A stretch of DNA of 63,808 nt, filler included, from Collodictyon triciliatum (Eukaryota), in the NCBI GenBank assembly GCA_043381765.1. It is 5 parts of 5 records of this genome, joined end to end, with 100 filler letters (N's around TTAATTAATTAA, not from the genome) between each part and the next. Parts side by side here need not be neighbours in the genome. Positions count along the whole stretch, not along the records: positions 39,907 to 53,086 come from JBHJMP010002030.1; 4 more parts are not named here. One strand, 5' to 3'. Positions 39,807-53,086 of the stretch are shown here, one piece after another (positions within the stretch are counted from its first letter, which is position 1; each line of letters starts with the position of its first letter). Under the pieces are notes generated by a model. It made no database searches, had not been told where the DNA came from, and worked only from the letters and a program-made list of their open reading frames with translations. The position numbers were made by a program, and so were the translations under genes.

Positions 39807-39906
39807 NNNNNNNNNNNNNNNNNNNNNNNNNNNNNNNNNNNNNNNNNNNNTTAATTAATTAANNNNNNNNNNNNNNNNNNNNNNNNNNNNNNNNNNNNNN
39901 NNNNNN
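39807..39906. other. Artificial contig spacer
   Basis: 44N-TTAATTAATTAA-44N. Confidence 0.97.
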
Positions 39907-39987
39907 TTTATGTTTTTTTATGTTTTTTTATGTTTTTTTATGTTTTTTTATGTTTTTTTTTACGCTTCTTAGCGCACGTTTAAGAAC

Positions 39988-42524
39988 TTACTCGCTGTAG
40001 CAGAGGCTGACCGCGAAAGTGGTTGCTGATCGGGATTCTTGAATGCCTTCACAGGGGTTGAACTTTTCATTTTTGAGCAGCCCACCAGAATCTCTCCCCT
40101 CTGTATTACAACACTCTTCCGTTGCCTCGGCTGGACTCCTCTCGCTTACCTGTACTCTCTGACAGCTCCTTCCTGGTATTTTTTTCCTTTTCTTAACGTG
40201 CCTGTATCCCATTGACGTGATTAGGAAAGGAGAGGGAAACAGGGTGTTGGAAAGTGCCCCGGCTGCACAGTTTTCTGCTGGCGCTGGCCTGAGATCGCTC
40301 GCTTCGAAATAGCTTTTACAACAAAAAAAAAATAAGAGTATGGGAGCAATGACAGACAGAAAGCAAAAGGAACGGCACCATGTCCCCACACCCGACACGT
40401 TCGGGAGACTTTGAGCCATCTGCCTGTTTTGGGACTCTACTTTGAGGCAGCGGCGGACGGTGTTTGCGGCTTGGATTCATGAAGCCGGAGTAGCAGCAAA
40501 CAAAAATAATTCTTTACCCACAAACACCCACCAGATCCAAATGCGGAGAGCCCAACGGTTCTGCGTGATTTATCCATCTCTGGAATTTTTTATTCTTCCT
40601 TTCAATTATCCATCTCTGGAATTTATTCGAACAGAACAGGGTGTTTTAGCTGTGCGTGGGCGGCAGATACTGTCTTTCAGGCGGGACTGGTCTGCGGATT
40701 CTCTCCTGCCTGGCCACAAGAATCAGCTTCTCGTAGCGCGTAAGTGCCTTTGTTTTTCTCTGGTAGCTGGTGTCGTCTTTGGCCTGAGCACACTCAGAAA
40801 TGGCTCTCTTCAAAGACATTGCTACGGTATTCGGCAAAAATGTCATTAAAGTTTGTTTGGGTGAAGTCGAAGCGCGGCTTACGGGCAAAGTTACCTTCGC
40901 GCTCTGATATGATGATAATCTGGACAAGCTGGCTCTCATCAAGCTCCTCCAGATGCTCTTGCAAATGTTTTGCACAATATGAGAGTGGCTTGGGTATGAT
41001 CCCTTTGCACCTTCGTTGCTTTTCCCAAGAGACGGGCTATATGCAAACAGATAGTGCCTCTTTTTATGATGCGCCCACAGGCACAGCCCTGTGATGATTT
41101 CTATCTTGGCATCCGTGTGTCCAAGCCCATAGTTTTACAAGATATAAGAAAAAATAAATTTGTTTTTCTATGAACATACTTGCTCATGCTTACATCTTGT
41201 ATATTCCGAGCTATGGTCAAGGTACAGGTGATTGTAACAGTAACTCGTCGAGCCAAACTCTTTCAGCACCGGATTTCTGCATGGCGCATTTGTGCGTGCG
41301 TTTTTCCCCAAACACAAATCATGTAGCTGTTGAATATTGTAATTGCTTAATATATATGTATATACAGACTAATAAAAACAGGTGAAAGGCATACTACCTC
41401 GGTTTTTGATACTAGGTGAATATCCGAGGGGATTGGGTTCGCGAGGCGGTCTTTTGTTTTCCTTTGTTTGGTGTCTTGGCTGTATGATGACTCACTACCT
41501 TGATTTGAATGACTCGTAATGAAACCTTGCGAGGATGTTTGAAAATCATGGCTCGTAGCATGAGAGAAATGTCCAATTGATTCCGAAGCATTACAGCTCT
41601 CATCCAACTTCATGTCATACTCTGCATAAGATTGGACCAATCCCCTCTCTCTCTCATCTGAGAAAAAATCCAGTCGTTGATGGGGCCATGTGTTCTGGAA
41701 CTGGCGCTCATAAGAGCAACCAGAATCAGGTATGAATCCTGTGCCTTTGGCCAATCCTCCTCTGCTTGATTCATGAATAAAAGGAGAATTCATGGGTGCC
41801 AATGGAGACGGTGAATCTGTGGGAAAACAGAAGCGCGGGTGTGGCGCACGGAATCCTCCTCTCTGTCGCTCTCCTCCAGGTGTCATTTGACCCCAATTCG
41901 CATCTGCTTCCACAGAATTGTTATATATCTCTTCCTCATCTCCTATTTCCTTCTCAGGAGTCTTTTGTGGGGAACTTTCTTCATTTCCCATCCTTCTTTT
42001 GATTAATATGAGGATGAATATGACCGAATAAATCATAGGATTCTTTCTGAAAAAAAAAATTCTCTTTTCAATTTGTGGAAAATAAGGCATTATTCTCTTA
42101 ATTTTGAAATCGCTTTCATATCAATTATAAAACTGTACTCATTCAAGATTACTTAAAATTACTTTGCAATTAACCCTGTAATTATTTAGGGACAAAAATA
42201 TCCCGCTCGCTGGGTACATGCAGTATGTTATGTTTATTTGGTTTTATGGTTTTATGGTTTTATGGTTTTATGGTTTTATGGTTTTATGGTTTTATGGTTT
42301 TATGGTTTTATGGTTTTATGGTTTTATGGTTTTATGGTTTTATGGTTTTTGACTAATCGAGGACGTATATTAAGTTAAAGTAACCTTCGATCTGGAGACT
42401 TCGCCCGGGCCATTAAATGCAAATTGTTCTTGCAAATCACACCTAAATGTAATAACTTTTAAATACGAGATAATCGATTGTCGGGTAATCGACATGGCTC
42501 ACCTTTTGATAACATCTCGCACAT
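39988..42524 (-). CDS. zf-C3Hc3H (KANSL2/INO80D-type zinc finger) protein; both ends uncertain
   Basis: Exons 41180-41326 and 40895-41036 splice in phase 0 to CLGKNARTNAPCRNPVLKEFGSTSYCYNHLYLDHSSEYTRCKHEQPVSWEKQRRCKGIIPKPLSYCAKH, i.e. two C-C-C-H units. Preceded by a large disordered exon (about 41398-41995). Confidence 0.6.
42240..42348. repeat. (GGTTTTAT)n microsatellite
   Basis: Visible directly. Confidence 0.95.
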
Positions 42525-42742
42525 CCTAAACGACAGAATTATTGCTTATTGAGATAATGACATTCACTCCGACTACGTCGGATATATATTTCCCTTTCCG
42601 AAATCAAGCACGTGTGATCTGGCTACCAATTTGGTGTGGCTCTACGATGTACGCATCATTATTTTCGCGCACCAAAACGAATGAATGGTACACCTATTGA
42701 ATATTCGGAAAAGGTGGCAATTATTAATGGCTGAATGTGGTC

Positions 42743-42835
42743 TTCTCCTCGTGTTTTCTCTCTACTATGCGCACCTATCTCGCCCCTTGTACAGCATGAC
42801 CTCGCTACACTTTGAATCGAATAAAGGGGAAAAGC
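42743..42835 (+). mobile_element. 5'-truncated non-LTR retroposon 3' fragment, copy A
   Basis: Ends CACTTTGAATCGAATAAAGGGGAAAAG. Flanked by CTGAATGTGGTC (42731-42742) and CTGAATGAGGTC (42836-42847). Confidence 0.75.
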
Positions 42836-43075
42836 CTGAATGAGGTCCAAAGAGTAATTGCTTCATCAGTCGCAATCGTATCCATGTTTTCATGAGCTCG
42901 TGGGTAATTAATCAAGTGGGGTTTACATTCATAATTATGCTCATGCTCACTCCTTTGCATTCCAATGCCCAGAAATACAATATCTTGAAAATTCAGTTTG
43001 ATGTGTGTCGTGCTTGAAGAATGCTTCAAACTGATTACGCAAACATCTTTTTTGCTCTTTAATGTACGTAATACT

Positions 43076-43170
43076 ATGATGATTATTATGATGATTATTA
43101 TGATGATTATTATGATGATTATTATGATGATTATTATGATGATTATTATGATGATTATTATGATGATTAT
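43076..43170. repeat. (ATGATGATTATT)n minisatellite
   Basis: Visible directly. Confidence 0.95.
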
Positions 43171-43210
43171 CATTATAGTCATTATTATTGGTGAATTATT
43201 ATTTTATCTT

Positions 43211-43329
43211 TTTTTTTCCTTTATTTGGTTCAAAGTGCAGCGAGGTTATGCCATACATAGGGGCGAGATAGGTGTGCGTGGTAGAGAGCAAACGCGAGTA
43301 GGAGAAGACACTGCTGTGGAGAGGCTAGC
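43211..43329 (-). mobile_element. 5'-truncated non-LTR retroposon 3' fragment, copy B
   Basis: Reverse complement aligns with copy A over about 95 bp and has an A tail. Perfect 17-bp TSD AATTATTATTTTATCTT at 43194-43210 and 43330-43346. Confidence 0.8.
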
Positions 43330-43879
43330 AATTATTATTTTATCTTATTTGTTTGCTTTGAAATTTCATCGGATGGTTTGTTTTTTTTCCTTGCAAAATT
43401 TTGTTGTTTGTTTGAGCTAAGCTAAGGGCAAAGATATCTAATGCGCAATTCCATATCGATTAGCTTCACAGCCCATGCCATTTCGCATCGGCCTTGTTTT
43501 CAAATCCCGAGGAAAAGTGTGTCTGCGCCCTTTGTAACGCATGTCCTCCTTTGTGAAAACAAACTAGAGAATGGTCGTCAATAACTTTTCTAAGTGTGGA
43601 ATTTATTATAATACCGATTTTTTTCCTATATATATGCGTTTGCAAACGAAAAAAATCTACAAGCACATTATGCATATACATTAGCATGTTGTACTGGATA
43701 GACCACACTGGTGTGCATGTTTAAATGTTCAAATTTAAAACTTGGCATCAGGGAAGATGACATTACGGCTATAGCACCCATAACACCGTTTGATTTTATA
43801 CAACATAGGCATTTGACAAAAAACTTCCGATTCCTATTACGATTTGTCACTGCGTATTAATAGGACAGAACCAACATCA

Positions 43880-44045
43880 TGCCCCCAATCGGTAATCCAT
43901 CTGTGAATCGCCCAGTCAGGTGTGGTTCGCGCGCCCTTAAGCGAAGCCGGCCAATAGGGAAGCCGCGCGAAGGCCCAGCCACAGCACCAGGCGGAGGCAT
44001 AAAAGCTGCGTCCTCGGTTGCTGCAATGCCACCCGATTGGCGGCG
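43880..44045 (+). promoter_or_regulatory. GC-rich putative promoter of the LRR-TRP gene with three CCAAT boxes
   Basis: CCAAT at 43885 and 43951, ATTGG at 44036, CATAAAA at 43998; 300-460 bp upstream of ATG 44344. Confidence 0.35.
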
Positions 44046-44343
44046 AGCCTGCCGAAACACTATTGCAAAGCACCTGATCCACAGTCACGAGAGCCAGGAG
44101 GACAAACACATAGTAGCTGTTGTTCCAGACACGAGCATGATCCTTGGGCGGTGCAGAGCGGAGCGCGAAGACCTGGGCTGCACATCACTGACATCCCCAT
44201 CACCTGTAGCTTAAGTACCCAGGAAAGAGCAAAAGTCGCCACCAGAGGAGAAAAGAGAAGAAAGGAAGAGAGACAGACAAAGAGACCCGCCCAAGTAGCT
44301 TGTCAATCCTTGCAAGGAGGCCTGTCTGCGCTTCTCTCCCGGG

Positions 44344-47300
44344 ATGTCGTACTTTGATTACACAGTGTTTCGGCCCTGGCCATGGTTCCAGCCCAGCGGG
44401 GACGTGCATCAGGCCACATTCATGGACCTGCGTGAGCGGTGGATCCGAGAGTTGCCCGAGTCCATTGGAGCGCTTCGCCTGCTGAAGTTCCTCAGCCTTG
44501 GCGTGAATAGCGTATGTCCCCCCTAGCTGTGGCCTGCTAGACTCTTTAATTGCGCCCGACTGTTTATTTTTGTTCTTGTATATTATTCTGCTGTCACACG
44601 TATTGTTCATTTGAGCCCATGATCGAGAGGGTTGAGCCTGACCATAGTTGTGCAAAGTGCTCTTGAAGTTGCCTTGACAGAGTCTTTGAGTAGACGCTGT
44701 CGGAGATAACCTCTGCACCGCCTGCAATCATCCATTGCGATTCATACTGATGCTACTTCTGTCATTCCAGCCAAAGAATAAAGGTCGGTCTATTGATCAT
44801 TAATTATCCTCACCCTCTAGATAAGCACACTGCCCGAAACATTCTCACAGCTTCAAGATTTGGAGGAACTCTGGCTCGGCGCAAATGATGATCCACAATA
44901 CTACTATAAAGGTGGAAATCACGTAAGCAACTTACTCTCGTCCATAGGACGGCCTTCCCAAGTGCTTTTTGACCACCTCAACGAGGCCATCCCAGAAAGA
45001 GTTCTCTTTCTGTCTTGTGGGACTGTCGATCAACAAACCAATCACATCCCCACGGTTGTTCAAATCCACCACTAACCTTAGCACTTTTATTCATTCCGTA
45101 CAGTTTTCCGAGTTCCCAACGGTCCTCACAACACTCTCTAACCTTAAACTCCTTGGCTTTGGCAAGAACCAGGTACCCTAAGTCATATGTTCATAGGGCC
45201 TCAGCGGCTCACAGCCAGTTACCCTGCGTGTATTTCTCATAAAGGTTGTCCGCGATCATATTCTCGTTCAAAACTGCTCCTGTATCTCTTCATAGCTCAT
45301 CTCATTTCCACCGGAAATCACCAGAATGAGCAGCCTCACCTTCCTTAGCTTTGGAGACAATCAGGTGATCACTTTGACACTCTGAAGCACACATCTATCT
45401 GTTGTGAATTGAATTCAGTCTTGAATACTCCAGGGCAACCCCCTCTATGAAAAGGTGTCAATTACTGATGAACCACTTGTTCCACACAGATTGAAAATGT
45501 CCCCATCATCCCAAGTCTGCTAGCACTTACCCTCAGCGGCAATAAGGCTTGTGACACCCCTGTTCTTTACGATAGATCCATCTTGTAATGCTTACACGTG
45601 GCGTTCAAGTCAATGAGCATCACATTTAGATTAATTATCCCTCTGATAACAATTACCTTCTGTGACGGAAAAACAATAGATATCCTCCCTTCCAGATGAA
45701 ATCAGTCTTATGACGAACCTAACATATTTGGCATTATCTGGAAACCAGGTGTGTGTCGCACAGTAGTTATTCACAGACATATTGCATATCTTCTTATCTC
45801 GGTTAACTGCTGACATGTCTCACGACCCCTAATCTTCCTTTCCCTGCGCTAGCTTTCTTCCCTGCCGTTAGCCATCAGTAACTTGGTCACGCTCCAGGTC
45901 CTCCAAATCCAGAAGAACAAGGTTTCATCTCATTAACATCCCTTTGAATCGAATAAAGGAAAAAAAATCTCATTAACTTCCCTTCCACAAGCATTCACAA
46001 CCAATAAGACCGTCGAGACCCCTCCCCCTCCTCCCATCATATGCTTGTTTCCCACAGGCTTCTCTAATAAAAGTGCTTCATTGTAATAGTTGTCTTCTAT
46101 CCCAGCGGAATTGACCAGTCTTACCTCTCTCAAATCTTTCGACTGCCAGTCCAATGAACTGCCTGAAGAGGAGGCCAACATATGGACTCACTATAACTTT
46201 GAGCATCAGCAAGTGATCCTCGAAGATCAAGGACTCGTAGAGTTTCCCGTGTATGCCCTACAGCTGAGTCCGGCGTCCATTAATTTATCTCAGAACAACC
46301 TTATCATCACCCAACATGCCCGCCGAAAGACCGAATGGGAATCGAAGTGCAACAGCGACGAACATGAAGTCGAGCCTGAGTCTGCCGAGGGCCGTAAACT
46401 TTACCCCACAGGTCCTTTTTTTTTTTTTCTTCCTTCATCGTAAGCCTGAGGCTATATAATACGAGCCCAAACCTTCATCTATTTGCCAACAAATCCCCAC
46501 ACATCTCACCATTCCAGCTGGCTTATTTTTACGTGTCCAAAGTCACGATAAATAATAATTGCACCCGCGTTTAACTTTCTTCACCCCCTGCAATCTAGTT
46601 TTCCCTCCTCAACTATGCCTCCATACCATGGACATCATCCTAACGGGCAATCCTGCACTACCTGGAATCTTCGCCAAGGAATTCCCCGCTATCATCAGAA
46701 ACGAAGACAATAGTGCATGCGAAAAGGCACTGAAGGCTCTTGCTCTCATCAAGAAATGTCCAAAGTACGACCCCATCCTGGCCCAGATGTATGAAGACTT
46801 TGCCATGGAGGAGCTAGACAAGATGAGTGAAGACCCGTCGCAGGCCCATCTCATCGATGATAGCCTCATCCAACTCGCTGTTGATGCCGATGCTCTCGAC
46901 TTCCTCACTGTGGACACTATTGAAGAGACTATCGAAGAAATGTGGAGTGCTGGCGCCTCGCTGAAGACGTTCCTCTCTGTCGAAAAGCAGAAAGCATCAT
47001 GGTGGTCCGACGGATACTGGGTCGGCATCGGGTATTTCCTTCAGGCCGTCGCCAGTGAATTCCCAAAGTTCACCCGCTCTCCCCAGGGAAAGTATTACTT
47101 GGCTGGAACTATGTACTTTCTCTTTATGATTCTCCTATCCATGTTCTGTTACCAAATGAATACCTCTTTCAACAATCCATCATTTTACTTCACCGACCAA
47201 CTGCGCAACAAATACGCTCCTGATGAGTTGGGTTCTCCAAACGACTTCTGGTCTTACTTCTCTGATACCTTCCTCCCAGCTCTGAACAGCGGAGTCGAAA

Positions 47301-50300
47301 GCAGAGACTTGGTGACACCAGAGGGTCAGTACAAAGCATCGTTCTCCTATTATCGCCAAGTAGGCAACCTCCGAATCCGGCAGTTGAGGTCGGTTATGGA
47401 GCTATGCAGGGAATTGGAACCGAAGAATGACAATCCGGACCTAATAGACTCTCATCCTCGTCCCTACTGCGTCCGTCCGTTTGGGCCGATTGACGAAGAT
47501 ACTGGCTCTTTCGGCCCGAAAAGAGAGTATACGTGGATTTCGACGTTAGACTCAAAGGGATATCCTCTATTTGGCCAACTCCGCATATTCTATCCAGGGA
47601 GCGGATTTGTACAGTATTTCTCCCAAAACACCACGGACCAAGAGTCCAAAGTCAAGGAGCTACAAAATAATTTCTGGATTGATCTGCAGACCAGAGCAGT
47701 CGTGTTGGAATTCCTCATCGCCAGTGATAATTTGGACCTCTTGAGCTCAGTATCGATACTATTCGAATTCCCGGTCTCTGGGGGCGTCTTTGCAACCACA
47801 AAGATCCACACGATGCCCCGACTCGCTATGTCTGAGAACCGAGCGAGTGTTAGCGCCATCTCTGTGTTCCTGATGATCTTTGCGATCGGATACTTTTTGC
47901 ACGAATTTACTGTATTCATGAAGGATGGCCCTGAAGAGTACTTTAGCGAAATCTGGAACAAGTTTGATGTTACCCTGATCATCTTACTATTTATAGTACT
48001 TGGATTTCAGTATCGTATCACTGACCTGAATGCACCATACAACGTTCCTGGGGCAGAAGACTCACTCTTTGCTAGTTTCAAAGAGATATCCAACTTATGG
48101 GCATATCAGCGGGAGTTTCTTGCAGTTCTTGTTTTCATGGCCTGGATTCGTCTGCTTTACTTTTTCAGTATTCATGAGTATCTCGGACCCATGCTGCTTA
48201 TTGTCGGTGCGATGACATTCAATATCGTTCAGTTCCTGATTTTGTTGCTTGTGTTCCTGCTGGCGTTCGGAGGCTCAACTTATGTCTTGTACGCGACGGT
48301 TCTGGAAGGATATTCTACGCCTCTAGACACAGCTTTCTCGATAGGAAACTTTTTGTTCGGTAACTTCGATTTTGATGCCATGAATGACGAGGATAACGTG
48401 CTAGGTCCCATATTGTTCTTTACGTTCCTAATTCTCTGCATTATATTGCTGATGAACTTCCTTATCGCCATCCTCAGTGGAACCTATGAAGAGATCCAAA
48501 ATATCTCAGAGAAAAAGTATGTTAAGCTGATGGCTGAAACTCTTCTATCTGCCATGAACTCACCAGCGCCGCCACCGACTAATCTTTTGACGTACATTGC
48601 TCCCATATTTGGTCTGGTTCTATGGATTGTTCCCTACTTCCGTCCCATCACGCTTTTCGTCCGCGAATGGGTAGAAAACGCGTGGGCTGAACGCTGCATC
48701 CAATGGTACTATATTTGGATCGACAATCACATGGAGAGAAAACTATGGAGCCAGTGGCCAAAATATGAGTCAAATGTTTTCCTGATATACCGTGACCTCT
48801 ATGACGGACCCGAAGATAAGAAATGGACCAGATTTACCGATCATTTTGTCTATGGACTGAGTTGGTTCATCTCATCCTGCTTCACAGTTATCTTCAAATT
48901 CTTTATGTCGCCGATTGCATTCATACTGCGCCGTAGTAAGAAATATTTGAAGCATCGCAATGGGGTTTATGATGTCATCGAAGTCGTAACAAGGAAGAAG
49001 AAATCTCAAGACGGCGGTGAAGAAGAGGAAGAAGATGACGACGATGACGACGAAGAGGACCATCCAATCTTCGAATTGGACAAGTACTTTAGACGATTCA
49101 CGGTGCGGTTGATCTGGGTCTCTACGACACTTCTTTGGATTACCTTCTTCTTTGGGCGATTCTACAAGGTATTTAGCCTTATGCCTGTCTTTTTTTTTTT
49201 TTAACGTCACACTCATGTTCCACCTGGGCCGTTCGATGCACATACCAGATACTCTACTTTCAATTAGCAACCCGAAACCAGGACATACTAATTCACCACC
49301 ATTTTTTTAAATTACTTATACAGAGACGCTATTCCAAGAAAGGTACGCACTGTCCAGTTTAACACTTGCCGGTTTCTCCTGAGAACTTCTGATTATTTTT
49401 TGTTATGAAAAACAAAGAAAATCATTTGCCGTGATGACCGATTGACCAATTTAAACTTACAACGACACTTATCTGTAGACGACGAGCACAAGGATATCCG
49501 CATTAACATCGAAGGCGAACACAGCATCAAGGAAATCAAGCAGGACAACATCTTGATTCACCAAGGAGAGCGAGGCTCTGTGGTCACCCTAAAATCTCCC
49601 GTTCCCATCGATAAGGAGAGAAATTTCAACTACTTTGAAGTTGAGATTATCAATCCAGGAGAGGGTGTTTATGTGGGTCTTTGCAGTGGCGAATATCCGA
49701 AAGATAATCGTCTTGGCATGCAATCCGGGTCCATCTCTTACTTTTCCAAGAGTGGAGAGGTAAACATCGACTGGAGATTGCGCCGTGCCGCATACAAGCA
49801 AATGGCTCCCTTCCACTATCCCAGCGCGGTCATCGGTTGTGGCATTGACCCCAACTACAGCCAAATCTACTTCTCGGTGAACGGAAAGTTCGGCTCTGAG
49901 AACATTTCCCAAGACACGGTGCTCAAGGGTGCACTCTACCCGGCCATCACTCTGACTCGGGGCGCTTCTGTGCGTGTGAACTTTGGATCCGAGCGGTTCC
50001 GCCTGTTCTACACACCCCCAACCCCAGAGTCGGGCTTCTCATGGCTTGAGGTATCCGAGACGGTCTATACTCATCCGAACCTGGAGGCACTGACCCTGTT
50101 CAGCACAGAGCATGAGCTCGGACAGCTGGTTGAGTCTCGTATCTTTGGAAACACGTTCCTCTCTCTTAGGTCATTGCCATACATGGACATTAACATCTAC
50201 AACCGGGGATTCCATGACGCACCAGTGCTGCAGGTTGGATTCATGGCGCTCAAATACCCTGTCAAGAATCCGGAATGGTTCGAAGATTACACCCCGTCCT

Positions 50301-50952
50301 TGGTTGCCAAAGTGTACGAGGACCACATCGAATACGGCGGTAGACTGCTGCTCGGGTAAGGATTTGCCACGCTCGCTCGCTTCCCCGCCCAATCAAACAC
50401 GCACACACCCACACCGATGCATACATATGTATACGCCTTTTGTCTCCTCGAATATATTCCTGCCTCTCCCATGGCGCAAACGGTGAGCAAAAGAAAGATT
50501 TCCTGTCCACGAACGAACGAACGAACGAACCAACTAACCCAACCCCATGCAGTTCGGACGAAGAGGACGAGTCCAAGACAATCACCATCAAGCACACCGG
50601 GGCTTTCACAAACTTTGCGTTCCACCTGCGCTCGCTCCACAACGAACAGGAACTGTGTCTGGTGATCGACCACTCCATCGTCCACCGCATCAAGCTTGGC
50701 ACGCGGCCCGTCTACCTCTACCCGGACGTTGTCCTGCGCCACCCCACGCAGCTCATCACCGTCCGCTTCCCCACTGAGTTCACCCTCAACCACGACTTCA
50801 CCACCACCGGGCCCGAAGGCATCCAGATGGTTCCGCTCACCGAGCCGCCGTCTGCCGAAATCAAGCGTGACACTGGTGCCGGTGCCTCCTCTTCTGTGGA
50901 GGAAGGCGGAAGCGATGAGCAGGAGGGCGAGGAATCAAAGACCCTCATCTAA
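44344..50952 (+). CDS. LRR - TRP/polycystin-2-type cation channel - SPRY fusion protein (about 1596 aa, 12 exons)
   Basis: Exons 44344-44511, 44821-44922, 45104-45172, 45296-45364, 45490-45546, 45680-45748, 45853-45921, 46090-46411, 46599-49168, 49324-49342, 49479-50355, 50553-50952 total 4791 nt in one frame. Motifs: LxxLPxxIxxLxxLxxLxLxxN repeats; PKD2 motifs RIRQLR, YPGSGF, WIDLQTRAVVLEF, FEFPVSGG, LGPILFFTF..LLMNFLIAIL; SPRY YFEVEI..VGL..IGCGID..IYFSVNG..LYPAITL..VRVNFG. Confidence 0.85.
45938..45966 (+). mobile_element. Retroposon 3' fragment, copy C, in LRR intron 7
   Basis: ATCCCTTTGAATCGAATAAAGGAAAAAAA flanked by ATCTCATTAAC at 45927-45937 and 45967-45977. Confidence 0.8.
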
Positions 50953-52000
50953 GGCTCTCGCCCTGATGGAACGGCGCCACCCCAGAAAACAAACAAGGAA
51001 CAAAAAAAAACAAAAAAAAACAAAAAAAAAACACAAAAAAACGCATTGGCAAGCAGGCACGTACCGCCTATCCCCTTATGAAATCAACCCAACCTACTCC
51101 CACGAGCTGGCAGGTTGCCAAAACAAAACAAAACAAAATCAAAAAAAAAAGCAAAAAAAACGAACATGAATGAAAAGCGAATCAAGGACAAGGACAAAAG
51201 ATAATCAAATTAGGGTGGCGCCAAATCCAACAGAATAAACCGACAAAAAAACAAAAACAAACTTAGCATAAGTCAAAGTGCTGTAGGAACAACGAATATC
51301 CTGTGGAATCTCCTTATCCATTAATCTATGCCCTGGTATGGAAACAGATGGAGGTATTTGTTTGTTGCCTTTCGTTGCGGGCGTTTGAAAGGCGGAAATA
51401 TGGCAAAATGCGAGGCGCGGCAGTGATTGCGTGGGAAATCATGGACGGTGCAGCGCTAAACGATCAAACCGCCCTTGCACGGCCGACGAGGCCCTATCTC
51501 TTCTTCCTGTGGCACTCGTTTTTATTTTATTTCTATTTGTCTCATTCCTTTGCTTTCTACTATGTTCTACAGCCACATCCACACAAGTCTCGTTTTCTTT
51601 TCTTTTACTTCTTTTCATCTTGTTTCTTTTACAATCACTTTTTCTTCTTTATCTTCTTTTCTTCCTTTCTCTTTTCTATTACTTCTACTTTTACTTTACG
51701 TCTTGTTTCTTTTACAATTACTTTTCTCCTTTTCTCCTTTTCTCCTTTTCTCCTTTTTCTTCTTTCTTGTTTTCTTCTTTTTCCTTGTTTGTTGTTTGTT
51801 GTTTGTTGTTTCTTCTTTTCATGGGCGCCCGAAGGCTACTGTCCAAGCACGGGCTGGTTTGCTAAGTTGCTAGCTTATGGCGGTACTGCCCACTCACACG
51901 ACTAGGAAGGCGGAAGAGTAAGAACAACAACAACAACAACAAGAAGAGAGTATCAGAACAAACATCCAGACAAGCCTGCGTTCCGCTCAAGAGAGGAAGG

Positions 52001-52995
52001 ATGTTCCGGTTCCAAGGTAATTTGAAGAAGAAAGGTCTGCCGATTGAGAGCAAGACCTGGGAGATCGAATACCAGGACTTGGAGTTTCTCAAGACCCTGG
52101 GAAAGGGGTCCTTCGGAACAGTCTTTCACGTTAGTTTCATGATACTTATTTATGCAGTGTGTAATTGTAGATACATTTTCCTTCTTTTTCTCTTATTCTT
52201 TATATCGAGCTGTTGGAAATTCATTTGACTTATCCATCTACCTCGATTATCGTCACCCTTATTTATTTTTTATCATCGTATTTTTTTTAAATGATCACTG
52301 AATAGTTTGAAAGTACTGCATTCAATACAAACCATATGTTCGTGTCTATTCACACATAATGAACAAAATAATAATAATGAATAAATAAATACACACGCAA
52401 ATGTATATATGACACATATAACACAGACTCAGATTCACCCACATCCGTTATTTTACGTAAAAGATTCAGCTCTATGATTGATAAAAAAAACTTTGATGTA
52501 TGCGTGTCTTAGGGAATGTACTTTGGGACGGACGTAGCCATCAAGCAGATCAATGATGATGATGAAAAATATCTCGAGCGAGAAGTCGCCATCCTGAAGT
52601 AACGCATTTCGACTGTTCAGAATGTGCCAATTTTTCCAATAGTTTTCAATATTTGGGGAAAAAAATAAGATATTAATCCTGTAGAAATTCCTTTTTGTTC
52701 TCGGTGAGAACATATTCAAATCGACACTCTTTGATGACAATATGCTTCCTTTTCTTGCAGGGACATCCGGCACCCCAACATCGTTCAATTAATGGGGATT
52801 TGCGAGCACCAAACAGGATTGTATCTTGTTACAGAGCTACTGAATGGAGGAACCCTTCGCAAGAAGCTAAAGAATAAAGCGGTGGAGATGGGATGGTCCT
52901 TGAGGCTCGATGTGACCATCCAAATGGCCCGAGCTTTGACCTACCTACACTCAAAAGCCATTATCCATCGTGACCTCAAATCAAAGAACGTTCTC
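52001..52995 (+). CDS. Tyrosine-kinase-like (TKL, possibly LISK/TESK-like) protein kinase, 3' truncated by contig end
   Basis: WEIEYQDLEFLKTLGKGSFGTV, VAIKQI, EREVAILKDIRHPNIVQLMG, YLHSKAIIHRDLKSKNVL. Confidence 0.9.
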
Positions 52996-53018
52996 GTAAG
53001 GATGCTCTCACATACATA

Positions 53019-53086
<68 letters not shown>

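Follow-up and report, generated by a model that had tools for sequence, protein, structure and literature searches.

The collodictyonid Collodictyon triciliatum carries, on the plus strand of positions 44344 to 50952 of the DNA analyzed here (the window: 63,808 nucleotides [nt] in five joined parts of GenBank assembly GCA_043381765.1, with positions 39,907 to 53,086 taken from JBHJMP010002030.1), a 12-exon gene for a predicted transient receptor potential (TRP) channel that combines the extracellular TOP domain of polycystins with flanking segments resembling those of TRPC and TRPM channels. The coding sequence (CDS) of 4,791 nt specifies 1,596 amino acids (aa) and a stop codon, and the protein contains, in this order, leucine-rich repeats (LRRs), a linker-helical domain (LHD), a TOP domain within a core of six transmembrane (TM) helices (S1 to S6), a TRP-like helix, and a SPRY domain. 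In the usual teaching, TRP channels fall into two groups, of which Group 1 has cytosolic linker domains and a TRP helix and Group 2 has an extracellular dome and neither of these. We consider it likely, with a probability of roughly 0.8, that Group 1-type flanks have been retained in a protist branch of TOP-bearing TRP channels that is distinct from classical animal-type PKD2. A preliminary description had proposed the three-part combination from one exon, the middle of the protein described here, and both sequence profiles and predicted structure back its presence in a single protein. With both feature sets in one subunit (in this gene, in its paralogues, and in a few unrelated protist proteins), the textbook division would fail outside animals.

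Composition of the channel exon

The LHD, S1, the TOP domain, S2 to S6, and the TRP-like helix are all encoded by one 2,570-nt exon (46599 to 49168) that has no intron at the domain borders, and therefore an assembly or gene-model artifact cannot explain their combination. The exon lies in an open reading frame (46559 to 49204; 881 codons; protein P0001, whose numbering is used below) that encloses the previously described stretch from 46850 to 48640; all coordinates given here are on the plus strand. The nine motifs quoted in the preliminary description (9/9) are present where it placed them, in one reading frame, in the order given, and inside this exon. They are SLIQLAVDADALDFL (aa 102 to 116; 46862 to 46906), FTRSPQGKYYL (aa 171 to 181), and TMYFLF (aa 184 to 189); RIRQLR (aa 272 to 277), YPGSGF (aa 345 to 350), WIDLQTRAV (aa 373 to 381), and EFPVSGG (aa 403 to 409), all four in the TOP domain; and TYEEIQNISEKKY (aa 642 to 654) and SPAPPPTNLLTYI (aa 668 to 680; 48560 to 48598), both after S6.

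The linker-helical domain and pre-S1 elbow (46688 to 47092), of TRPC/TRPM type with a ...LAVDADALDFL...W motif and an FTRSPQGK elbow, had been likened to TRPM and TRPC channels, and a sequence profile supports this likeness. The profile was built from nine segments (the window and eight paralogues from Diphylleia rotans; 186 positions) and compared with 177,635 sequences of the Protein Data Bank (PDB), 93 of which matched at E ≤ 10. The best 60 of these 93 were all TRPC or TRPM, with E values of 3.7e-7 for TRPC3, 1.9e-5 for TRPC6, 2.3e-5 for TRPC1, 1.9e-4 for TRPM5, 3.8e-4 for TRPM2, and 6e-4 to 2e-3 for TRPC4 and TRPC5. Profile positions 30 to 180 align with TRPC3 residues 213 to 389, taking in the linker helices, the helix with ...LA..A...F.AH..CQ..L...W, the SP..K elbow, and the first part of S1. 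W115 is invariant in 9/9 rows of the family alignment, and the paralogue P0158 has YDFVAHRNF...W at this place. Judged by sequence, the likeness to TRPC and TRPM goes beyond chance.

This profile is the main evidence for homology of the pre-S1 region, and the predicted structures are consistent with it. The pre-S1 blocks have pLDDT values of 90 to 97 in the AlphaFold2 model of the whole channel, and the segment folded alone reaches 81.4. A comparison of the domain-only model with 48,161 representative chains, made without the Foldseek prefilter, gave Z values of ≥8 solely for TRPM3 (9.3; 154 aligned residues) and TRPM8 (8.3), with TRPM7 (7.2) and TRPY1 (6.6; model residues 1 to 186) at the next ranks, the top five being four TRPM chains and one TRPY1. 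In a Foldseek search with the isolated pre-S1 model, all rows listed through rank 50 were TRPM or TRPC (E = 0.2 to 1.9).

The region after S6 begins with a TRP-like helix (TYEEIQNISEKKYVKLMAETLLSAMN; 48476 to 48559), placed by alignments with YVC1 and TRPM2, in which a tyrosine aligns with Tyr473 of TRPY1. A proline motif (SPAPPPTNLL) and a hydrophobic re-entrant-like helix follow (48560 to 48631; hydropathy at aa 673 to 691). Pfam reports the family YVC1_C (PF23317) at aa 426 to 701, with an E value of 1.6e-9 and 38 bits against a cutoff of 27. With S2 to S6 plus the tail as the query, 16/16 PKD2 and PKD2L1 alignments ended at sub-query residues 229 to 234 (P0001 residues 648 to 653), and those with Chlamydomonas TRP1 (crTRP1), the TRPM2 chanzyme, TRPC3, and YVC1 extended to residues 259 to 276 (P0001 residues 678 to 695). 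The post-S6 segment alone aligned with zebrafish TRPM2 (E = 0.067; "spa.ppptnllty" with "rpalpppfillshl") and with YVC1 (E = 0.12; the query tyrosine in KKY opposite Tyr473). The family consensus of the region is NFLIAILSGTYE.I...SE..Y..LFA.T.......P.P.P.NL; P657 and P659 of the proline motif are invariant in 9/9 family rows, and the tyrosine of the helix is kept in all seven LRR-SPRY family rows. In line with the earlier reading of this region as resembling a TRP helix with a PPP motif, it aligns with the TRP helices of TRPM, crTRP1, and TRPY1; the TRP-box tryptophan is a tyrosine, and the segment alone gives no significant score. A Group 1-like helix with a proline motif is a weaker proposal than that for the pre-S1 region: the evidence from the segment alone is weak, and in context the pattern is regular.

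Between these flanks, the channel resembles polycystins. S1 (47093 to 47149) corresponds to a hydropathy peak at aa 179 to 197, and the superposition on PKD2 starts at model residue ∼158. The loop between S1 and S2 is a full polycystin TOP domain, as had been stated (47234 to 47815; Pfam PF20519, Polycystin_dom, aa 226 to 419; E = 5.9e-24; 85.2 bits against a cutoff of 23.6); it comprises ∼200 aa and superposes on PKD2. Its residues R260, Q261, R263, C269, and C290 are invariant in 9/9 family rows, and both cysteines align to cysteines of polycystin-2; by analogy with PKD2, C269 and C290 presumably form a disulfide. The S2-to-S6 membrane core with the pore helix and filter (47846 to 48496) matches PKD_channel (PF08016; aa 430 to 646; E = 2.4e-25), and Pfam also reports Ion_trans in P0001. 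The best PDB matches of P0001 were polycystin-2 and PKD2L1 (E = 4e-40 to 4.5e-35; query residues 185 to 653), followed by the TRPM2 chanzyme (4e-11; residues 429 to 686), crTRP1 (6pw4; 8e-11; residues 429 to 703), and YVC1 (1e-8; residues 429 to 695). Even without the TOP domain, the S2-to-S6 core scored best to PKD2L1 (73.5 bits; E = 2.3e-19; sub-query residues 20 to 229), ahead of crTRP1 (50.7 bits) and the TRPM2 chanzyme (49.4 bits), and the protein is therefore no Group 1 core into which a dome was inserted.

In the AlphaFold2 model of the whole channel (61-row alignment; mean pLDDT, 83.4; pTM, 0.75), both resemblances are seen together. Foldseek ranked PKD2 first (E = 8.9e-24; TMt, 0.84), and PKD2 chains superpose closely (Z = 26.8; root mean square deviation [rmsd], 2.6 Å; 448 aligned residues) while covering just the stretch from model residues 157 to 166 to model residues 626 to 642 (159 to 638 for 9dwq). 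The TRPM and TRPC superpositions start at model residues 1 to 35 and end at 663 to 686, so that both flanks are covered and the TOP domain is skipped. They include the TRPM2 chanzyme 8srb (Z = 23.0; rmsd, 5.5 Å; 393 aligned; residues 8 to 686), TRPM4 9b90 (Z = 22.1; residues 20 to 669), TRPM3 (Z = 22.0; residues 20 to 675), TRPC5 7e4t (Z = 21.8; rmsd, 3.5 Å; 376 aligned; residues 1 to 663), and TRPC4 (Z = 21.8; residues 1 to 663).

The channel thus shares with polycystin-2 and PKD2L1 a TOP domain with an arginine-rich strand and a cysteine pair between S1 and S2, and its six-TM core is nearest to theirs by sequence and by fold. It differs from PKD2 in S6 (NFLIAIL here, NMFLAIIN in PKD2) and in the filter (FGN here, LGD in PKD2), and it has LRRs and a SPRY domain. 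Animal PKD2 has a C-terminal EF-hand and coiled coil; Pfam matched neither P0001 nor the downstream exons to an EF-hand family at E ≤ 1. Nothing in the PKD2 structures matches the LHD and pre-S1 region or the post-S6 segment. These are the parts in which it resembles Group 1 channels: both profile and fold show the LHD, pre-S1 elbow, and S1 to be collinear with those of TRPC3/6/1/4/5 and TRPM2/3/4/5/8, and in the weaker alignment with TRPM2, a putative TRP helix after S6 is followed by a proline-rich motif and a hydrophobic re-entrant segment. Group 1 channels, in contrast, have a short S1-S2 loop without a TOP domain; the core of this channel is nearer to PKD2 than to theirs, and their ankyrin or MHR domains are absent from it. 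The premise that Group 2 channels lack both flanking features agrees with PMC9242649, according to which Group 2 TRPs (GII-TRPs) have neither pre-S1 nor a TRP helix. A preprint on the TRPW family (bioRxiv 10.64898/2026.06.15.732144) describes such flank features as unreported in TRPP and TRPML, and a companion preprint of 2026 defines Groups 1 and 2 identically.

TRPY1 (YVC1) offers a further comparison, with YVC1_C above the cutoff, a tyrosine-type TRP helix, and a similar LHD fold (Z = 6.6), although it lacks TOP, LRR, and SPRY domains and its sequence similarity is low (E = 1e-8). Table 1 of PMC9242649 gives the TRP-box tryptophan as the last fingerprint residue and lists tyrosine for TRPY. 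According to bioRxiv 10.1101/2020.10.12.336495, Tyr473 of TRPY1 is central to the coupling of the TRP helix with the S4-S5 linker, and past the TRP helix, the following segment enters the membrane. The latter recalls two further hydrophobic helices in our protein (48869 to 48925, aa 771 to 789; 49097 to 49153, aa ∼847 to 865) that flank an acidic tract. In the five family members scanned, extra hydrophobic peaks stand at comparable places, although in most of these members just one of the two passes the threshold, and the model has long helices there (739 to 783 and 822 to 855; pLDDT, 45 to 73). The two helices could represent an additional TM pair or, as in TRPY1, helices inserted into the membrane.

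Paralogues and other TOP-bearing channels

An exhaustive protein search gave 4,253 matches at E ≤ 1e-3, of which the 150 best were listed; word-indexed homologue searches gave one match and three family members. Among the 150 matches listed, seven (P0003 to P0008 and P0010) have their best stretch starting at query residue ≤78, and these, like P0009, all come from the EukProt transcriptome of D. rotans. P0003 to P0007 show the domain order LRR, Polycystin_dom, PKD_channel, SPRY (with the SPRY domain of P0006 below the Pfam cutoff), and Pfam found no SPRY match in P0008. The layout is kept in at least eight D. rotans paralogue clusters, and among the matches listed, the LRR-...-SPRY arrangement occurs in the window and in D. 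rotans only.

Whether the flanking motifs are routine in protist PKD2 homologues had been raised as a possible objection. They are not routine, since at E ≤ 1e-8 the post-S6 profile matched 12/162 proteins, namely 10 entries of the family and the single cluster P0014/P0162, yet the combination is also found outside the family, in P0014, P0036, and P0103. All three carry Polycystin_dom and a post-S6 P.P.NL motif. The family pre-S1 hidden Markov model (HMM) retrieved nothing beyond 16 family entries from the 162 proteins, and the more sensitive hhalign was needed for these three. It aligned the pre-S1 region of P0014 (from a metagenome, with ankyrin repeats, TOP, and YVC1_C) at an E value of 2.7e-6 and a probability of 88.6, that of P0103 (from the amoebozoan Pyxidicula operculata) at 2e-4, and that of P0036 (from a metagenome) at 1.3e-3, the last two at the correct place. 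The post-S6 HMM matched P0014 at 1e-8 and was marginal for P0103 (0.28) and P0036 (0.35). In the control P0020, a classical PKD2-like protein, no pre-S1 match was obtained at the right place.

The TOP-bearing channels of other protists (from Balamuthia, Cavostelium, and Pyxidicula, together with P0014 and P0036) share the TOP domain and the PKD_channel core with the family and fall on the same side of a well-supported branch (see below), but they have ankyrin, WD40, or no recognized repeats and neither LRRs nor a SPRY domain. N-terminal ankyrin repeats are present in P0014, P0087, P0101, P0121, and P0066 and WD40 repeats in P0028, and no repeat domain was recognized in P0036 and P0103. As described in its preprint (bioRxiv 10.64898/2026.06.15.732144), TRPW is likewise an ancient protist TRP family with an N-terminal repeat domain, pre-S1, and a TRP helix; there, TRPW1 has WD40 propellers and its extracellular surface is called "relatively limited," in contrast to the TOP domain and LRRs of our channel, and Pfam found no WD40 family in P0001 or in P0003 to P0010. 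The structural matches listed did not include TRPW1. P0028 (1,753 aa) contains WD40 beta-propellers followed by Polycystin_dom, PKD_channel, and a tryptophan-bearing post-S6 helix (AWEIYITRLL), and it could link the TRPW architecture with TOP-bearing channels. In the literature, we found no report of a TOP-bearing channel with Group 1 flanks, although figures S7 and S8 of the preprints (TRP architectures across eukaryotes) might show TOP-bearing forms, and none of an LRR or SPRY domain fused to a TRP channel.

Separate phylogenies of the TOP domain and the pore region, as the preliminary description had proposed, gave no supported conflict. These were quick, unrooted maximum-likelihood trees of 61 rows hand-picked from the 150 matches and the family isoforms (the gappy P0137 was left out of the TOP tree), and most of their deep branches are weak. 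The TOP tree recovers a monophyletic family (SH-aLRT, 96), adjoining P0036 plus P0103 (support, 83). In the TM tree, a branch with a support of 98 parts 40 classical PKD2-like rows from 21 rows comprising nine from the family, four ankyrin-TOP proteins, P0014, P0036, P0103, and five others. Both trees place the family outside classical PKD2.

Origin of the combination and its possible role in gating

Several observations weigh against retained Group 1-type flanks. The pre-S1 segment of the window alone found no TRP protein in the PDB (only ClpB, at E = 0.54), and Pfam assigned no TRP family to any of the nine pre-S1 segments, so that the pre-S1 signal, absent from a single-sequence search, needs the nine-sequence profile. 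Foldseek gave no match at E ≤ 0.001 for the isolated pre-S1 model, and the domain-only Z values of 9.3 and 8.3 lie within the range in which the tool warns about helical bundles. AlphaFold2 was trained on TRP structures, and the model is only partly independent. For the post-S6 segment alone, no PDB match was significant (best E = 0.067), the TRP-box tryptophan is replaced by tyrosine, and S6 and the TRP-like helix form one continuous DSSP helix (601 to 653) in the model. Of the amoebozoan ankyrin-TOP proteins, P0121 (Cavostelium) has a pre-S1 match only at the level of motifs (E = 0.32), and P0087 (the Balamuthia "TRP-like ion channel Pkd2") has no match to the pre-S1 profile. Furthermore, in the filter (LFGNFDF; ∼48320 to 48340), the position of the PKD2 aspartate is asparagine in the window and in P0003, which by analogy may put ion selectivity or even conduction in doubt; among the seven other family rows, the position is D or E in 6/7 and Ala in P0004. 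Two other searches did not bear on the question, as the pre-S1 segment alone had no usable match in the ESM Atlas and the output for the whole-family profile against the PDB was dominated by LRR proteins and uninformative on TRPM and TRPC.

Taken at face value, the failure of either flank to reach significance in single-sequence searches, the moderate Z values of the isolated domain, and the missing canonical tryptophan would suit an ordinary divergent PKD2 homologue whose flanks resemble TRPC and TRPM by convergence or helical composition. We think this very improbable. The profile reached 3.7e-7 among 177,635 sequences, with TRPC and TRPM making up the best 60 of 93 matches at the equivalent place (LHD to the start of S1), and the unbiased scan of 48,161 chains put TRPM3, TRPM8, TRPM7, and TRPY1 first. 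The motif order is collinear with TRPC3, with ...LA..A...F..H...Q......W followed by SP..K before S1, and the YDFVAHRNF...W of P0158 fits the same pattern. A chimera, which the preliminary description had considered, would have arisen recently in the collodictyonid lineage, either by insertion of a TOP domain into a Group 1 channel or by grafting of Group 1 flanks onto a PKD2 gene. Such an event would be in keeping with the best scores of the flanks to TRPC/TRPM and of the TOP domain and core to PKD2, and also with the modular evolution seen elsewhere in the gene, with its one-repeat LRR exons, a SPRY domain on its own exon, and a micro-exon. We nevertheless give it little credence, as everything from the LHD through the TRP-like helix lies in one exon of 2,570 nt with domain borders free of introns, the TOP-less core scores 73.5 bits to PKD2L1 versus ≤50.7 bits to any Group 1 chain, and the layout persists in at least eight paralogue clusters. 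The combination is also seen in P0014, P0036, and P0103, proteins from other sources that include the amoebozoan Pyxidicula; the TM tree groups the family with these three and the ankyrin-TOP proteins (98), the TOP tree keeps it monophyletic (96), and the two trees do not conflict. Finally, a fusion of neighboring genes during assembly or gene modeling, or a pseudogene, has next to no probability. In its favor is only the general risk of draft eukaryotic assemblies, with an N run near position 39863 of the window. The candidate was rejected because a single open exon contains the hallmark segments, no stop interrupts the full CDS, exon 8 is connected to exon 9 and the channel exon to the SPRY exon by RNA contigs, and an independent D. 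rotans transcript has an equal 1,596-aa layout.

A deep lineage bridging Groups 1 and 2 is plausible; the trees, being unrooted and composed of sequences from outside Group 1, do not prove an order of events. A more far-reaching possibility, which we put forward tentatively and hold to be somewhat less probable than its negation, is that the LHD, pre-S1, TOP, and TRP helix together were ancestral to the polycystin/mucolipin branch, and perhaps to all TRP channels. In that case, PKD2 and TRPML of animals would be reduced forms and the division into Groups 1 and 2 an animal-centered artifact. Living intermediates would then survive in the collodictyonid family and in its relatives from amoebozoans and metagenomes, their TOP-capped pore still gated by a Group 1-type cytosolic lever; here, the lever would be driven by partner-binding LRR and SPRY modules that no other TRP channel is known to have.

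By analogy with known TRP channels, the protein would assemble into a domain-swapped tetrameric cation channel with a ring of TOP domains on the outside. The TRP-like helix would lie under the S4-S5 linker, touch the pre-S1 region and LHD, and couple to S6. The LHD would carry a SHOC2-like LRR solenoid and the C terminus a SPRY domain, a protein-binding fold, and binding events at either could reach the S6 gate in the manner of Group 1 channels. The gene gives the question of what features were present in the first TRP channel a concrete starting point, is a natural construct for testing TRP-helix gating of a TOP-capped pore, and adds LRR and SPRY domains to the cytosolic sensor modules fused to TRP pores.

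Gene structure, transcripts, and predicted cytosolic modules

The gene is real, intact, spliced, and expressed. Exons 1 to 6 occupy 44344 to 44511, 44821 to 44922, 45104 to 45172, 45296 to 45364, 45490 to 45546, and 45680 to 45748, and exons 7 to 12 occupy 45853 to 45921, 46090 to 46411, 46599 to 49168, 49324 to 49342, 49479 to 50355, and 50553 to 50952. Joined by these coordinates, they give a single open frame whose sole stop is terminal, with 10 GT-AG introns and one GC-AG intron. RNA contigs from four public runs of four studies were aligned to 44300 to 51000 (parts without contig cover in single runs are uninformative) and confirm most of this exon model, through eight listed joints, a bridging record, and a loose end that confirms 44922|45104. 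The joint of exons 8 and 9 (46411|46599) is bridged in runs X1 and X3, and 50355|50553 is present in X1 and X6. In three freshwater or lake metatranscriptome runs, 12/12, 10/10, and 9/10 contigs match the gene at ≥99%. The D. rotans orthologue P0003, also of 1,596 aa, aligns colinearly with the window between 44344 and 50913 (tblastn), with 938 identical residues over 1,650 columns of a global alignment with the gene product.

The N-terminal LRR region (44344 to 46411) is encoded by eight exons, six of which specify one repeat of 19 to 23 aa each. Pfam reports LRR_14 in exon 1 below the cutoff (E = 0.0026) and LRR_8, LRR_4, and LRR_14 in P0003 and the paralogues, and the best PDB match of the family profile is SHOC-2 (E = 5.8e-105). 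At the other end, a SPRY domain (49631 to 49990; PF00622; E = 4.3e-14) was found in 49481 to 50353 of exon 11. Both modules are predicted to be cytosolic because neither a signal peptide nor a TM segment is indicated by hydropathy ahead of S1. The channel exon is joined to the SPRY exon through a 19-nt micro-exon (49324 to 49342; RRYSKK) that keeps the frame, as seen in one X1 contig (record 4), which spans 48696 to 49166 and 49477 to 49944 with 19 letters between them. The last exon (50553 to 50952), in which Pfam found no family at E ≤ 1, encodes a conserved C-terminal segment with 39% identity to P0003 residues 1434 to 1555 and ends with a TAA stop.

Some minor features were also observed. 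The GC-AG intron, one of the eleven, is 45547 to 45679, and three runs (X1, X2, and X6) have RNA contigs that contain its joint. It separates two single-repeat LRR exons (45490 to 45546 and 45680 to 45748) that are apparently extra relative to the aligned part of P0003, both proteins having 1,596 aa. The X1 contigs differ from the gene by ∼30 single-base differences and a 9-nt insertion (three codons) at 49027 in the acidic Glu/Asp tract, resembling a close strain or sister species. Upstream of the gene, where an N run is located near 39863, the AT-rich intergenic DNA contains tandem repeats at 42174 to 42378 and 42805 to 43203, with a 24-nt unit that reads YGFMVLWF and a long microsatellite of AAT/ATT type.

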